A stretch of 64,000 bases of DNA, taken from a virus (lineage: Duplodnaviria; Heunggongvirae; Uroviricota; Caudoviricetes). Of the stretch, positions 14,098 to 22,989 are shown in pieces. The stretch is from IMG/VR virus record IMGVR_UViG_2778260992_000001. One strand, given 5' to 3'. The number at the start of each line of letters is the position of its first letter. Position 1 is the stretch's first letter. Below the pieces are notes generated by a model that saw only the letters and a program-made list of their open reading frames with translations, made no database searches and was not told the DNA's origin. A program made the position numbers and the translations under genes.

Positions 14098-14720
14098 GCA
14101 CGGTAGCGAAAGATCTCACAGAAGATATTCTCAATGAAATTATTGCTGGTGCAAATACCTCGCTTGAGCAACTTCTTGCGTTAGCACTGAGAGCCGAACG
14201 TCGAGACAGAAATCGTTTTTATGAGCGATTACCAGGGAAGCGACCAGATAGATCGGATGAAGAAGGTTGCGATATAGACTACATGGAGCCTTCAGAGATT
14301 TATCAACTTGGTAAAGATGACGGCTGGAACGCTTATCACGATGCTGTGATGAAGTTGGATGAAAAAGTTAAACCTCTTTCTCGACCGGTAGATCACGGTT
14401 TCCGCGATAACTGCGAATGCTCTAGTTGCCAGACCACGGCCCGTATTTGTTCCGAATTGACAGATAAGTCCAGCCTAATCTACGAAGTTAATGTAGGCGG
14501 TAATACATGGGTCGAATGCACAAGAGCTGCATACGTAAGAGCAAAAGACAAGGGTGAATTAACCAGAGTTGTTACCCATCACCCAAATAATGAGCTTAAA
14601 GATCACCAGATTAGAGAACTGGTGAACGAGTTGCGGGATATTGCGGTTCAGTACCACGGAGCGCAGCAATTGCGGGAGAAAATTGCCAGAGCAGTGAACA
14701 ACTCAGTCCGTAAAAAATAA
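14094..14720 (+). CDS. hypothetical protein
   Basis: 208-aa ORF, last gene of operon before hairpin. Confidence 0.5.
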   Translation: MSTVAKDLTEDILNEIIAGANTSLEQLLALALRAERRDRNRFYERLPGKRPDRSDEEGCDIDYMEPSEIYQLGKDDGWNAYHDAVMKLDEKVKPLSRPVDHGFRDNCECSSCQTTARICSELTDKSSLIYEVNVGGNTWVECTRAAYVRAKDKGELTRVVTHHPNNELKDHQIRELVNELRDIAVQYHGAQQLREKIARAVNNSVRKK

Positions 14721-14737
14721 GCAATAGTACGATAAAG

Positions 14738-14762
14738 AGGCCCCATGCTCTTGATGGGGCCT
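14738..14762 (+). terminator. terminator-like hairpin
   Basis: aggccccatgctcttgatggggcct. Confidence 0.4.
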
Positions 14763-15160
14763 GTAGCAACTAGCGTTATGGACGCTGGTTTACGTACTCA
14801 ATGATCGCTTTGATAATCGCGAACATCGGCGGCACGATTTTGAACAGTAAGTTAACCATAACAGGCCTCACTTAGTTTTATCGCGCCTAGCTGCAAATAC
14901 CTTTGGGCTTGCCTTTGCAGTTGCAATATCTGTAGTCGCCAGATACTTACGGCACGATTTCGAGTTAAGGTAAGGTTTTAGAGTCACCAAAAACCTGGAC
15001 TTAAATCTTCTTTGAGAACAACGATGTTTGGTAAATGGTCATTATTACCTAGCATGACGGCTCAACGTTTCTTGATGAATCCAGTACATTCGGTTAATCT
15101 TAGCTCAGTCGCCAGATACTTATGGCTCAGGAACAGAGGCGCAAACTCTGTTTCCTTTTA
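14763..15160. repeat. ORF-poor region with duplicated ~20-bp modules
   Basis: agtcgccagatactta at ~14934 and ~15105; ggcacgattt at ~14826 and ~14952. Confidence 0.35.
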
Positions 15161-15162
15161 AA

Positions 15163-15190
15163 AAGCCCAGCCTAGTCAACTGGGCTTTTT
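15163..15190. terminator. bidirectional rho-independent terminator
   Basis: aaaaagcccagcctagtcaactgggcttttt (A-run, GC stem, T-run). Confidence 0.55.
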
Positions 15191-15485
15191 AATGTCCGTT
15201 TTTAACCAAATGTACCCACAATACCGCAACATCAGTGTCTTGCGAATTAAGATAGGATTTATAGAGACTATGTGCAAGTGCATAACTTTGTGGATAACTC
15301 GTAAAGGAAAAAGTGGTTTCCGCGGACATTAGTTCAGACAAGGAGTCTGGGAAAGTCAATGGGAAGTAAAAATTTGTTAAAAATAACGTTTGTTGGAATT
15401 GTATATATTTATGCCTTTCAATAGTTAGCATCTTATTAACATCTTTTTTAAGAGATAGAGTTCAAAAATATATAGCTTCAACATA

Positions 15486-15505
15486 TACTGTATGCATATA
15501 CAGTA
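15486..15505. promoter_or_regulatory. LexA (SOS) box
   Basis: tactgtatgcatatacagta fits CTGT-N8-ACAG, ~17 bp upstream of the UmuD'-like ATG. Confidence 0.7.
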
Positions 15506-15521
15506 TTAAGAGGCGAGTATT

Positions 15522-15911
15522 ATGGGCTTCCCTTCTCCTGCGGCGGATTATGCTGAGAGCCGTATTTCTCTTGATCAGCAGATAATTAGACATCCTTCAG
15601 CGACCTACTTCATGAGGGCAGCTGATAGTCATCATCGTGAGGGAATATTACAGGGTGCATTGCTGGTGGTCGATTCCTCACTTACCCCGGTTGATGGTTC
15701 TCTGCTTGTATGCGCTCTGGATGGGGAATATCGCGTAAAAAGATACCGGAAGTATCCACGTCAGCATCTGGAGGATTTAAGAACCGGTAAGAAGGAAGCA
15801 TTGCCAAAGGATGACGATGGATGCACGGGCAGCAATGCCGTGTTTGGTGTGATCACTCACATTATCAACGACGCAAGAAGTGGCGAGTTTGATGATTGTC
15901 CCGTGATGTAG
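15522..15911 (+). CDS. UmuD'-like (HumD-like) S24 peptidase-fold protein, pre-processed form
   Basis: begins MGFPSPAADY, i.e. at the position equivalent to the UmuD Cys-Gly cleavage site; contains conserved Ser (ADSHH) and a candidate Lys (RVKRYRK); no umuC downstream. Confidence 0.65.
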   Translation: MGFPSPAADYAESRISLDQQIIRHPSATYFMRAADSHHREGILQGALLVVDSSLTPVDGSLLVCALDGEYRVKRYRKYPRQHLEDLRTGKKEALPKDDDGCTGSNAVFGVITHIINDARSGEFDDCPVM

Positions 15912-15922
15912 GAGAACTGATT

Positions 15923-15948
15923 AGGCGGTGCAATGCACCGCCTTTTTA
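15923..15948. terminator. bidirectional terminator between UmuD'-like gene and apbC
   Basis: aggcggtgcaatgcaccgcct followed by ttttt. Confidence 0.5.
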
Positions 15949-17049
15949 TCACACTGCGCGGAATGCGATTTCGCCAGGTATTACTTCACCTTGCCAATAC
16001 ATTTGGGCAGCAACGCGATCTGCGAGGTCACGATAAATAGCCGTAAATTCGCTATCTGGACGACTAATAACGGTTGGTGTTCCGTTATCCAGATCTTCAC
16101 GAAGAGAGATATGAAGTGGCATTTGGCCTAACAACTGCGTGTTGTATTTCTCGGCCAGTTTCTGTGCGCCACCGGTGCCAAAAATTGGCTCGTGATGACC
16201 GCAGTTACTGCAAATATGCACACTCATGTTTTCAACGATACCCAGTACCGGCACTTCGACTTTTTCGAACATCACAATGCCTTTCTTCGCATCGATCAGC
16301 GCGATGTCTTGCGGCGTAGTTACCACAACCGCACCAGTTACAGGAATGTTCTGCGCCAGCGTCAACTGAATATCACCAGTGCCCGGCGGCATATCGAGAA
16401 CGAGATAGTCCAGATCAGGCCACAGTGTTTCCTGCAACATCTGCATCAGCGCCTTGCTGGCCATCGGTCCACGCCACACCATTGCATTGTCGTCGGTGAC
16501 CAGATAACCAATAGAGTTGGTTGCCAGGCCATGAGACATGATAGGTGCCATGTGAGTACCGTCAGGTGAGGTTGGACGTTGGTTTTCCGAGCCCAGCATG
16601 GTTGGAATTGATGGACCATAGATATCGGCATCCAAAATACCAACTTTCGCACCTTCAGCAGCCAACGCCAGTGCCAGGTTTACCGCCGTGGAGGATTTAC
16701 CCACGCCGCCCTTGCCTGAGCTGACGGCGATAATGTTCTTCACGCCATTAATGCCTGGTTGGTTTTTGACGCGCTTAAGCGTGGCAATGTTGTACGACAG
16801 CTTCCAGTCAATAGCCTTTGCGCCAGTGATACGGAGCAGATCACCACTACATTGCTCTTTCAGGTCTTCAAAAGGCTTATTCCACACGAAAGGCATGATT
16901 AGTTCGACATGCAGTGTGTCATCCATCAACGCAACATGGTGTAACGCTTTAAGCGTAGTCAGGTTGTGTTTCAGGGTTGGGTGCTGAAAATTAGCCAGCG
17001 TACCGGCTACCATTGCTCTCAGGGCATCCGGCGATTTGGACTCGCTCAT
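15949..17049 (-). CDS. apbC: iron-sulfur cluster carrier ATPase ApbC/Mrp
   Basis: 366-aa translation with Mrp/NBP35 P-loop SSGKGGVGKS and CxxC (CSNCGHH); recognised as enterobacterial Mrp from recall. Confidence 0.9.
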   Translation of the reverse strand: MSESKSPDALRAMVAGTLANFQHPTLKHNLTTLKALHHVALMDDTLHVELIMPFVWNKPFEDLKEQCSGDLLRITGAKAIDWKLSYNIATLKRVKNQPGINGVKNIIAVSSGKGGVGKSSTAVNLALALAAEGAKVGILDADIYGPSIPTMLGSENQRPTSPDGTHMAPIMSHGLATNSIGYLVTDDNAMVWRGPMASKALMQMLQETLWPDLDYLVLDMPPGTGDIQLTLAQNIPVTGAVVVTTPQDIALIDAKKGIVMFEKVEVPVLGIVENMSVHICSNCGHHEPIFGTGGAQKLAEKYNTQLLGQMPLHISLREDLDNGTPTVISRPDSEFTAIYRDLADRVAAQMYWQGEVIPGEIAFRAV

Positions 17050-17206
17050 CCCGTCTCCTTTATTTTAATTTGCGCAATTGTCGCCTTGTAGTGTACTCCA
17101 GCTACGACATTTAATCATTTATGAGAAATGCTGTTATCACATGGCAGACATAAGGCCATTTTGTTACTATCAAGCCCCTTTTCACTACAAAGAAGTAATG
17201 CCTACT

Positions 17207-19240
17207 ATGACCCAAGTCGCGAAGAAAATTCTGGTGACGTGCGCGCTGCCGTACGCTAACGGCTCAATCCACCTCGGCCATATGCTGGAGCACATCCAGG
17301 CTGATGTCTGGGTTCGTTACCAGCGAATGCGCGGCCACGAGGTTAATTTCATCTGTGCCGACGATGCCCACGGTACGCCGATCATGCTGAAAGCACAGCA
17401 GCTTGGTATCACACCGGAACAGATGATTGGCGAAATGAGTCAGGAACACCAGACTGATTTTGCAGGCTTTAACATCAGCTATGACAACTATCACTCGACG
17501 CACAGCGAAGAGAACCGTCAGTTGTCCGAGCTTATCTATACTCGCCTGAAAGAGAACGGTTTTATTAAAAACCGCACCATCTCTCAGCTGTACGATCCGG
17601 AAAAAGGCATGTTCCTGCCGGACCGTTTTGTGAAAGGCACCTGCCCGAAATGTAAAGCACCGGATCAATACGGCGATAACTGTGAAGTCTGCGGCGCTAC
17701 TTACAGCCCGACTGAACTGATCGAGCCGAAATCGGTAGTTTCTGGTGCTACGCCGGTAATGCGTGATTCCGAACACTTCTTCTTTGATCTGCCTTCTTTC
17801 AGCGAAATGTTGCAGGCATGGACCCGCAGCGGTGCGTTGCAGGAGCAGGTGGCAAACAAAATGCAGGAGTGGTTTGAATCTGGCCTGCAACAGTGGGATA
17901 TCTCCCGCGATGCGCCGTACTTCGGTTTTGAAATTCCGAACGCACCGGGCAAATATTTCTACGTCTGGCTGGACGCGCCGATTGGCTACATGGGTTCCTT
18001 CAAGAATCTGTGCGACAAACGCGGCGACACTACCAGCTTCGACGAATACTGGAAGAAAGACTCCACCGCCGAGCTGTACCACTTCATCGGTAAAGATATC
18101 GTTTACTTCCACAGCCTGTTCTGGCCTGCCATGCTGGAAGGCAGCAATTTCCGCAAGCCGACCAACCTGTTTGTTCATGGCTATGTGACGGTGAACGGTG
18201 CGAAGATGTCCAAGTCTCGCGGCACCTTTATTAAAGCCAGCACCTGGCTGAATCATTTTGACGCTGACAGCCTGCGTTACTACTACACTGCGAAACTCTC
18301 TTCGCGCATTGATGATATCGATCTCAACCTGGAGGATTTCGTTCAGCGCGTGAATGCCGATATCGTGAACAAAGTGGTTAACCTGGCCTCCCGTAATGCA
18401 GGCTTTATCAACAAGCGTTTTGACGGCGTGCTGGCAAGCGAACTGGCTGACCCGCAACTGTACAAAACCTTTACTGATGCTGCTGAAGTGATTGGTGAAG
18501 CATGGGAAAGCCGCGAATTTGGTAAAGCGATTCGTGAAATCATGGCGCTGGCTGATCTGGCTAACCGCTATGTCGATGAACAGGCTCCGTGGGTGGTGGC
18601 GAAGCAGGAAGGGCGCGATGCCGATCTGCAGGCGATTTGCTCTATGGGCATTAACCTGTTCCGCGTGCTGATGACGTACCTGAAACCGGTACTGCCGAAA
18701 CTGACTGAACGTGCAGAAGCATTCCTGAATACAGAACTGACCTGGGATGGTATCCAGCAACCGCTGCTGGGCCATAAAGTGAATCCGTTCAAGGCACTGT
18801 ATAACCGCATCGACATGAAGCAGGTTGAAGCACTGGTGGAAGCATCCAAAGAGGAAGTAAAAGCCGCTGCCGCGCCAGTAACTGGCCCACTGGCAGATGA
18901 TCCGATTCAGGAAACCATCACCTTTGACGACTTCGCCAAAGTTGACCTGCGCGTGGCTCTGATTGAAAACGCGGAGTTTGTCGAAGGTTCTGACAAACTG
19001 CTTCGCCTGACGCTGGATCTCGGTGGCGAAAAACGTAATGTCTTCTCCGGCATTCGTTCCGCTTATCCAGATCCACAGGCACTGATTGGTCGTCACACCA
19101 TTATGGTGGCCAACCTGGCTCCGCGTAAAATGCGCTTCGGTATCTCCGAAGGCATGGTGATGGCTGCTGGCCCCGGCGGGAAAGATATCTTCCTGTTAAG
19201 CCCGGATGCTGGTGCTAAACCAGGCCACCAGGTTAAGTAA
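17207..19240 (+). CDS. metG: methionyl-tRNA synthetase
   Basis: translation from [29 protein letters not shown] (HIGH) through KMSKS and C-terminal tRNA-binding domain; appears near-identical to E. coli MetG as recalled; divergent from apbC as in the host chromosome. Confidence 0.95.
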
Positions 19241-22677: not shown

Positions 22678-22989
22678 ATGAAAAAATCATTGGTTCTTGG
22701 TCTGGACAAAGACCAGAAGAGAAAAGAGAAGCCTGCGCTGGTTGCTCAATTAACTTTGCTGGACATCGTTGCCAATGGAACCTCTATTCGTCTGTTCCGT
22801 GAAACAGCGGTGTCTTTCGATAAAAACACCTTTACTCGTTATGTAATGAATGTTCGTCGCCAGCGTGGAAAAGGCTGGGTGGCATTTCAAAGAATGTGGC
22901 CGGAACATCAGCTCGAACTGGCTTTGATGGAAGTTAACCGCGTGGCCCAGCAAGAGATTCAGAGAGCATCAGTGATGGCAATAGCCTGA
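22678..22989 (+). CDS. hypothetical protein
   Basis: ATG 22678 with RBS acggag; 103 aa. Confidence 0.45.
   Translation: MKKSLVLGLDKDQKRKEKPALVAQLTLLDIVANGTSIRLFRETAVSFDKNTFTRYVMNVRRQRGKGWVAFQRMWPEHQLELALMEVNRVAQQEIQRASVMAIA

Follow-up and report, generated by a model that had tools for sequence, protein, structure and literature searches.

What does a short UmuD-like gene do on a viral element, beside genes of host type and without a umuC of its own? The gene lies in the window, by which we mean the whole 64-kb stretch of DNA analysed here. The ORF listing of the window places it at positions 15522-15911 on the plus strand, with a product of 129 amino acids whose N-terminus reads MGFPSPAADY. 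The locus raises the questions of whether this product is made in an already activated form, whether it is under SOS control and where its partner would come from.

The gene belongs to a HumD cassette that was known and annotated before, and the reading put forward in an earlier note on this DNA is supported, not new. The finding adds little, and an SOS-regulated, pre-activated UmuD' gene is recognisable from raw sequence. We consider, with a probability of about 0.8, that humD is an orthologue of P1 humD and forms a self-contained SOS-regulated cassette on an SSU5-like phage-plasmid, and that its product pairs with host UmuC for Pol V-like translesion synthesis.

The product is a pre-cleaved UmuD' analogue

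The 129-amino acid product matches the NCBIfam HumD equivalog NF051876 ('HumD family translesion DNA polymerase') from end to end, residues 1-129 on model positions 1-129, with 219.8 bits against a cutoff of 120 (E = 8e-66). Pfam detects a Peptidase_S24 domain, and PHROG 811 ('UmuD-like') is matched as well. The best structure matches are UmuD' chains (PDB 1UMU, E = 6.7e-23), and M1-G2 of the query align with UmuD C24-G25, placing query G2 on UmuD G25. In UmuD, G25 is the N-terminal residue after RecA-mediated cleavage. Exactly one residue precedes this Gly in 109 of 120 relatives. An in-frame TAA at 15507-15509 on the plus strand lies five codons 5' of the humD ATG and overlaps the Shine-Dalgarno sequence; no ATG, GTG or TTG intervenes, and therefore an N-terminal arm cannot be encoded. 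The coding sequence is thus that of a pre-cleaved UmuD' analogue with the S24 fold and without the arm, as the NCBIfam, Pfam, PDB and PHROG matches agree. The earlier note had claimed that the product begins at the equivalent of the UmuD autocleavage site and is born as UmuD', and had proposed an alignment to confirm that the arm is missing. Both the alignment, which starts at Gly25 and gives 92% identity to P1 HumD, and the TAA bear this out.

Neighbouring families fit less well. The UmuD subfamily model NF007621 yields 87 bits against a cutoff of 110, and the locus has no N-terminal arm, no Cys/Ala-Gly self-cleavage site, no intact GDSM...K and no umuC operon. A LexA- or CI-type S24 repressor would combine the S24 domain with an N-terminal DNA-binding domain, for which 129 amino acids leave no room; the LexA model is matched only at positions 91-166 of 203, which is the S24 domain (27 bits against a cutoff of 111).

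Escherichia phage Cyrano encodes a 100% identical protein, and the identical RefSeq protein WP_000506720.1 carries the name 'HumD family translesion DNA polymerase'. HumD proteins of the P1 group are 91-93% identical (92% by alignment with the P1 record), and N15 gp26, phiKO2 Gp23 and the UmuD-like proteins of HK140 and HK639 share 60-73% identity. HumD relatives also go under the names 'LexA family transcriptional regulator' and 'S24 family peptidase'; both are imprecise, and the former is a mis-annotation. Some relatives are listed at 148-167 amino acids, with extra N-termini (e.g. MDIQYLYCVFIRYSREGIN-MGFPSP) that run into the conserved Met. These extensions resemble a translated LexA box and Shine-Dalgarno sequence and are probably mis-called starts, not real arms. 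An AlphaFold2 model was discarded (mean pLDDT 44, pTM 0.32); the 68-sequence family alignment was too shallow, with all members at least 67% identical. The fold assignment therefore rests on the sequence match to UmuD' in the PDB.

The Ser/Lys dyad, the C-terminal tail and a Cys/His set

In the alignment, Ser60 and Lys97 of UmuD correspond to S36 and K73. The GDSM motif around the serine is degraded to A-DSH, with one residue deleted and Met replaced by His. Of 120 close cluster representatives, 75 have Ser as the nucleophile residue, 43 have Thr and 2 have Ala; 117 retain the Lys, and the Gly and Asp positions vary freely. In HK639 the Lys is replaced by Met, and neither dyad residue occurs in the homologues of Aeromonas and Hafnia. 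Since the dyad varies or is lost among HumD homologues, it is not a criterion of membership, and its loss would not be diagnostic as a refutation because a pre-cleaved protein does not need it. The earlier note had named the Ser/Lys dyad as a check: the two residues are formally present, but the motif is degraded and the dyad is no valid test of HumD identity. Judged from these residues, catalysis by HumD is unlikely.

The product ends in a C-terminal tail, SGEFDDCPVM at 119-129, that has no UmuD counterpart and agrees with the HumD-family pattern R-x-G-E-F-D-D-C-P-V-x. Each of the tail residues E122, F123, D124, D125, C126, P127 and V128 is shared by 108-117 of the 120 relatives. Four positions are specific to the clade, namely H37 (His or Cys in 114 of 120), C64 (119), H82 (115) and C126 (108). 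The corresponding residues of UmuD are Met, Ala and Gln, with no counterpart to the fourth, and the whole set is missing from distant homologues. H37, C64, H82 and C126 are a possible candidate metal site that would staple the C-terminal tail. The Ser/Thr-Lys pair, the Cys/His set and the tail are features that a simple UmuD' role does not explain.

A LexA box and the layout of the cassette

A predicted LexA (SOS) box, TACTGTATGCATATACAGTA, occupies 15486-15505, and 16 nt separate its last base from the humD ATG. The 20-mer departs from the LexA consensus TACTGTATATATATACAGTA at two positions of the central spacer; the E. coli K-12 umuDC operator TACTGTATATAAAAACAGTA likewise has two mismatches. 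The box is the sole site within three mismatches of the consensus in the 64-kb window, and none of 100 dinucleotide-preserving shuffles contained such a site. The looser pattern CTGT-N8-ACAG is not significant alone, with two sites in the window against 0.8 expected. The second of them, at 22792-22807, lies inside an annotated CDS without the flanking consensus and was judged a chance occurrence. The LexA box that the earlier note had described just 5' of the gene is thus found in place and unique in the window.

The box is conserved across homologous loci. phiKO2 and Enterobacter phage vB_Ecl_MII_001 have an identical 20-mer 5' of their homologues, and related boxes precede those of P1, N15, HK639, HK140, Hafnia yong1 and Aeromonas pAEv1818, the last a CTGA variant with one mismatch. 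The gap between box and start is 14-21 nt in seven stand-alone genes (this window, P1, N15, HK639, vB_Ecl_MII_001, Hafnia yong1 and Aeromonas pAEv1818); the phiKO2 box lies 44 nt 5' of its gene, and that of HK140 is 5' of a small leader ORF. The P1 record (AF234173) labels its box 'LexA binding site in the regulatory region of lxr and humD', and the phiKO2 record also annotates a lexA site. By consensus, shuffles and conservation, the sequence carries a predicted LexA operator, as expected of the HumD family. This agrees with the description of humD as LexA-regulated (PMC9603915).

A consensus scan finds a sigma-70 promoter-like site at 15461-15489 on the plus strand, with TTCAAA at -35, a 17-nt spacer and TATACT at -10. 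The -10 hexamer overlaps the first four bases, i.e., the left arm, of the LexA box. The site agrees with the consensus at 9 of 12 positions, which alone is at chance level (2 found against 2.4 expected). The promoter is weak by consensus; the position of the box and RNA-seq of an independent transcript support it. A Shine-Dalgarno sequence, AAGAGG, follows at 15508-15513 on the plus strand, 8 nt 5' of the humD ATG. Downstream of the gene, a terminator scan finds an intrinsic terminator at 15923-15948 on the plus strand, composed of a 9-bp G+C-rich stem (AGGCGGTGC / GCACCGCCT), a 3-nt loop and TTTTT. Its predicted fold has -18.6 kcal/mol (z = -5.2), and none of 200 shuffles was as stable. With promoter, LexA box, gene and terminator, the humD unit is therefore a complete monocistronic cassette. 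DNA homology to P1 extends from the first base of the box (15486) to the stop codon (15910) at 84% identity, and the terminator lies outside both this homology and the chromosomal apbC homology, which starts at about 15953.

Upstream of the cassette, 15273-15396 on the plus strand is a remnant of the upfO / DnaA-box / LPhot region of P1 (blastn, 72% identity over 126 nt to P1 locus L002 2830-2952, E = 6e-12) and includes a perfect DnaA box, TGTGGATAA, at 15289-15297. A divergent LexA-controlled partner, comparable to lxr in P1 or dinI in phiKO2, was considered and rejected. The sole minus-strand ORF, 15189-15431 (80 amino acids), is unannotated in every record, the promoter scan found no promoter for it on the minus strand, and the DNA there is the P1 upfO/DnaA-box remnant. 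An Rfam scan of 14500-16100 returned sub-threshold matches only (RNAI, 21.6 bits against 47).

The element, its cargo and the supply of UmuC

The window maps at 96-100% identity to circular E. coli plasmids of about 110 kb, such as NZ_CP195946.1 (109.9 kb). This plasmid encodes siphovirus head and tail genes, a terminase, a portal, RepB and ParB, together with dnaE, recA, nrdAB, thyA, dfrA51, a DNA ligase and tRNAs. This gene content therefore identifies the element as a phage-plasmid of the SSU5/pHCM2 type (Cyrano/pLF82 type). Cyrano (pLF82) is described as an SSU5/pHCM2-type phage-plasmid that is induced 39-fold by ciprofloxacin and present at 5.5 copies (PMC9928086).

A tblastn search with K-12 UmuC gave no match at E <= 10 in the 64-kb window or in the near-identical 109.9-kb plasmid, where three loci covered the whole and no umuC is annotated. 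The gene therefore stands without umuC, as first proposed from the sequence. Of 5426 complete E. coli genomes, 5423 contain umuC, and a host partner is therefore essentially always available.

Directly after the terminator follow apbC (15949-17049, minus strand) and metG (about 17200-19240, plus strand). Between the stop codons of apbC and metG, this block is about 90% identical to the E. coli chromosomal copy, and the element keeps the divergent chromosomal arrangement of the two genes. The block reads as captured chromosomal cargo, and the gene does sit at the junction with host-like cargo, as had been noted. Plasmids carry the apbC-metG block at 224 places. For Shigella sonnei, a link between metG on a phage-plasmid and antimicrobial survival has been described (Tam et al. 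2024, cited in PMC12452169). The humD-apbC junction occurs in 117 of the 5426 complete E. coli genomes, and 773 of them have humD in some form.

Phage-plasmids of about 110 kb with humD are common in clinical E. coli, and they also carry metG and dfrA51. On a multicopy replicon, an SOS-induced, ready-made UmuD' could raise the mutation supply under fluoroquinolone or intracellular stress.

Transcription of the identical gene in Cyrano

Published RNA-seq of LF82 carrying Cyrano offers a view of the expression of the same gene. The humD of Cyrano is CYRAN_98, which encodes the 100% identical protein, and its 91 upstream nucleotides differ from those of the window only at two bases in the spacer of the box (GTGT in place of GCAT). 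The CTGT and ACAG arms, the promoter and the Shine-Dalgarno sequence are therefore the same in Cyrano. We used the S1 and S4 tables of PMC9928086, which give log2(FPKM+5) for two replicates per condition. BLB denotes stationary phase in LB and MB6 bacteria inside THP1 macrophages 6 h post-infection; B1 and B6 presumably stand for bacteria in the absence of macrophages, at 1 h and 6 h respectively.

In these tables, CYRAN_98 stands at 7.44/6.94 in BLB, 9.56/9.89 in B1, 9.14/9.03 in B6, 11.37/11.30 in MB1 and 12.12/12.31 in MB6. It thus rises from about 7.2 in LB to about 12.2 at MB6, about 32-fold over LB and about 9-fold over B6, and is the most abundant transcript at MB6 among CYRAN_74-123. 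Its neighbours do not follow. The convergent apbC (CYRAN_99) and metG (CYRAN_100) are flat or falling, with 6.67/6.35 and 4.16/3.85 in BLB, 6.6/6.68 and 3.53/3.56 in B1, 5.76/5.72 and 2.89/2.97 in B6, 6.22/6.18 and 2.71/3.11 in MB1, and 5.91/5.95 and 3.15/3.05 in MB6. The upstream CYRAN_97 is 30- to 40-fold lower than CYRAN_98 at MB6.

Host SOS genes rise in the same macrophage samples. Across BLB, B1, B6, MB1 and MB6, the tables list umuD at 5.23/5.51, 4.78/4.88, 4.49/3.73, 8.19/8.19 and 8.81/8.94, and umuC at 3.4/3.38, 3.25/3.28, 3.36/3.39, 4.62/4.58 and 6.37/6.37. For sulA the values are 7.1/7.21, 5.89/6.24, 7.26/7.32, 8.48/8.41 and 9.86/9.84, and for dinI 7.26/7.29, 7.64/7.45, 5.89/5.77, 9.05/9.18 and 10.24/10.08. 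At MB6, the humD transcript is about 10 times as abundant as that of host umuD and about 57 times as abundant as that of umuC. The macrophage is described as a genotoxic, SOS-inducing environment (PMC9928086), and the induction of CYRAN_98 there is damage-associated; its attribution to LexA is correlative.

CYRAN_98 is also 4- to 6-fold up in B1 and B6, where the host SOS genes are not induced. Its level in LB corresponds to about 148 FPKM, 15 times the Cyrano median; repression is therefore leaky, or the multicopy replicon (5.5 copies) titrates LexA. The idea that CYRAN_98 is silent in unstressed cells, suggested by its absence from Table 1 of PMC9928086, is refuted by this value in the S1 table.

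Proposed mechanism and alternatives

We propose that in an undamaged cell host LexA would occupy the box, over the -10 hexamer and start region, and hold transcription at a basal level. DNA damage would activate RecA, LexA would be cleaved and humD derepressed. As HumD would be made directly in the UmuD' form, the slow RecA-dependent self-cleavage would be skipped. HumD dimers would then join host UmuC in a Pol V-like translesion polymerase that could replicate damaged DNA of both host and element, with raised mutagenesis as a by-product. P1 HumD reportedly forms dimers, associates with UmuC and with RecA filaments and can stand in for UmuD' in SOS mutagenesis, and this complementation is said to have required high expression. 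From the 92% identity of the two proteins, we infer that the HumD of the window would likewise dimerise, bind UmuC and RecA filaments and complement UmuD'. HumD has been described as an already activated UmuD (PMC7092418, citing McLenigan et al. 1999).

If the palindrome were no working LexA operator, the rise in macrophages would reflect another regulator, a change in copy number or read-through. The increase of CYRAN_98 in B1 and B6 without host SOS induction and its substantial basal level in the published tables fit such a view, as does the fact that the loose CTGT-N8-ACAG pattern is not rare. The full 20-mer, however, lies within two mismatches of the consensus and has no equal in the shuffles, and its distance to the start stays about constant in unrelated phage backbones with unrelated flanks. 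The flat neighbours on the same replicon and the 30- to 40-fold lower CYRAN_97 in those tables speak against copy number and read-through, and we regard a non-functional box as very unlikely. Still less credible is an active S24 peptidase that cleaves in trans, with host UmuD, LexA or a phage repressor as examples of its target. S36 and K73 do match UmuD Ser60 and Lys97, and of 120 relatives 118 have Ser or Thr at the first position and 117 have Lys at the second. Yet GDSM is degraded through the deletion, the variable Gly and Asp and the change of Met to His; the nucleophile is Thr in 43 of 120, and HK639 (Met for Lys) and the Aeromonas and Hafnia homologues (neither residue) depart further. 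The dyad is also reportedly dispensable for the function of UmuD' in mutagenesis.

HumD might act mainly on replication or on a DNA-damage checkpoint, pairing with full-length host UmuD or with Pol III subunits and cancelling UmuD2C-dependent slowing, which would favour replication of the element or lytic growth after damage. A transcript at about 10 times umuD and about 57 times umuC at MB6, according to the RNA-seq tables, is far beyond saturation of UmuC. The plasmid has its own dnaE and recA, and P1 humD lies near hot, a homologue of Pol III theta. UmuD' heterodimerises preferentially with UmuD, and umuD gene products are said to bind the alpha, beta and epsilon subunits of Pol III. Against this, UmuD' is without the N-terminal arm that bears the clamp-binding motif, and the function that the published account assigns to P1 HumD is UmuD' complementation. 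We therefore consider a primary checkpoint role unlikely and retain the pairing of HumD with host UmuC as the main reading.

A bolder reading starts from the Cys/His set, the almost invariant C-terminal tail and the Ser/Thr-Lys pair kept in a degraded active site. We speculate that a metal-stapled tail could sit in the former active-site cleft and give HumD a stability, a choice of partners (UmuC, UmuD, RecA, or the DnaE and RecA encoded by the element) or a regulation unlike that of UmuD'. As the humD transcript stands at about 10:1 over host umuD in macrophages, the phage-plasmid copy could be the main determinant of Pol V activity, and with it of stress-induced mutagenesis and drug tolerance, in adherent-invasive E. 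coli. We hold this extended proposal to be improbable.

Comparison with known systems

The closest known counterpart is HumD of P1, which shares the length of 129 amino acids, 92% identity, the Gly25-equivalent start, the C-terminal tail, an upstream LexA box and the absence of an adjacent umuC. The settings differ. P1 is not an SSU5-like siphovirus phage-plasmid, and the window lacks the divergent lxr and hot (about 1 kb), which in P1 separate the upfO/DnaA-box/LPhot region from the box. Downstream of humD lies phd-doc in P1 and apbC-metG in the window. The gap between box and ATG is 19 nt in P1 and 16 nt here, and the spacers of the boxes differ. Between the two humD genes dS is 0.77 and dN/dS is 0.055. 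The former value indicates that the gene is not a recent transfer and is therefore old in this lineage, and the latter that it is under strong purifying selection.

E. coli UmuD and UmuD', together with the plasmid-borne MucA, RumA and ImpA, have in common with HumD the S24 C-terminal domain fold, a LexA-box promoter, a similar spacing between box and start and UmuC as the expected partner. The product is 42% identical to UmuD over UmuD 25-139. HumD differs from these proteins in having no 24-residue N-terminal arm, no Cys-Gly cleavage step and no umuC-type operon partner, and in its extra conserved C-terminal tail of 10-12 residues and clade-specific Cys and His residues. A Klebsiella phage with full-length umuD plus umuC provides a contrast, as does the K-12 umuDC locus.

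N15 gp26, phiKO2 Gp23 and the HK140 and HK639 proteins are stand-alone, born-cleaved UmuD' analogues of 126-130 amino acids with the same tail motif and an upstream LexA box. They have Thr where UmuD has Ser60, whereas the protein of the window has Ser, and they often come with a dinI gene, divergent or upstream, that is controlled from the same box and is absent from the window. HumD family members on Klebsiella contigs of about 108 kb were considered as SSU5-like and rejected; these contigs are of the N15/phiKO2 type with TelK, SopAB and dinI. Stand-alone homologues occupy moron-like positions, between tail-fibre genes and integrase or sopAB. The earlier note had pointed to P1 as a source of known stand-alone UmuD' analogues, but such genes are not peculiar to P1. 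The humD cassette is an accessory module common to P1-, N15- and SSU5-like phage-plasmids and lambdoid phages.

Region upstream of humD

The gap upstream of humD carries no annotated genes. Window positions 15273-15396 share 72% identity with the region of phage P1 that comprises upfO, a DnaA box and the late promoter LPhot, and they include a perfect DnaA box, TGTGGATAA, at 15289-15297. In P1, the genes hot and lxr sit between this region and the humD LexA box, whereas both are missing from the window. From this similarity and the absence of hot and lxr, we infer that the 800-bp 'empty' gap 5′ of humD is a decayed fragment of a P1-like arrangement. An Rfam match to RNAI at 15104-15193 reaches 21.6 bits (E = 0.31), short of the gathering score of 47, and is probably due to chance. 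The RNAI-like stretch ends in a terminator-like hairpin (15169-15186) followed by a T run.

LexA-like boxes and expression

A second LexA-like box, CACTGTATAAGTAAACAGTA, is located outside the window on the near-identical plasmid NZ_CP195946.1, at about position 108720 (35721-35740 of L013, a locus taken from this plasmid). It lies ~27 bp 5′ of a tyrosine recombinase gene, adjoining an HTH regulator. This candidate box may tie the SOS response to the recombinase or to the lysis-lysogeny region of the element. Ciprofloxacin is reported to induce the related phage-plasmid Cyrano (PMC9928086). Within the window, CTGT-N8-ACAG occurs once more, at 22792-22807 (CTGTTCCGTGAAACAG), inside an annotated hypothetical coding sequence. 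This match has neither the flanking TA nor an AT-rich spacer, and we judged it to be chance.

The Cyrano humD gene, CYRAN_98 (2501-2890 of the Cyrano locus L014), is expressed. According to RNA-seq data given for strain LF82 in PMC9928086, its level in LB is 148 FPKM, above the cutoff of 49 that the authors apply to morons, and inside macrophages no other gene compared among CYRAN_74-123 is as abundant. Table 1 of that paper, which lists the morons, omits CYRAN_98 despite a level above the cutoff.

Protein relatives and clade-specific residues

Several relatives of HumD (P0023, P0024, P0031, P0048, P0070, P0071 and P0082) are annotated at 148-167 aa, and their N-terminal extensions resemble the translation product of a LexA box plus Shine-Dalgarno region. 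In most of them the extension is followed by Met-Gly at the position of the HumD start, the exceptions being P0048 (MD) and P0071 (TG). The extra length probably reflects mis-called start codons. One of these entries, P0024, represents 1430 member sequences by itself.

Residues H37, C64, H82 and C126 are conserved specifically in the HumD clade, together with a C-terminal tail (positions 119-129 of the window protein, encoded at 15522-15911) that holds the near-invariant E-F-D-D-C-P-V. UmuD has neither these residues nor the tail, and the distant homologues from Aeromonas and Hafnia lack the whole set together. One possibility is that these features make up a metal site or a docked tail.

Neighbouring cargo and comparison with other phage-plasmids

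Downstream of humD, the phage-plasmid carries a divergent cargo pair, apbC (mrp) and metG (15949-19240), with ~90% identity to the E. coli chromosomal copy. The stop codons of apbC and metG mark the exact limits of the chromosomal homology. Across complete E. coli genomes, plasmids carry the block at 224 places. Phage-plasmid metG has already been linked to antimicrobial survival in Shigella (Tam et al. 2024, as cited in PMC12452169).

Unlike the window, N15/phiKO2-type linear phage-plasmids and HK140 pair a HumD-type gene with a dinI homologue (loci L005, L006 and, from Klebsiella contigs, L015-L017). There the dinI homologue shares or neighbours the LexA box of the HumD-type gene, so the pair constitutes a two-gene SOS module.
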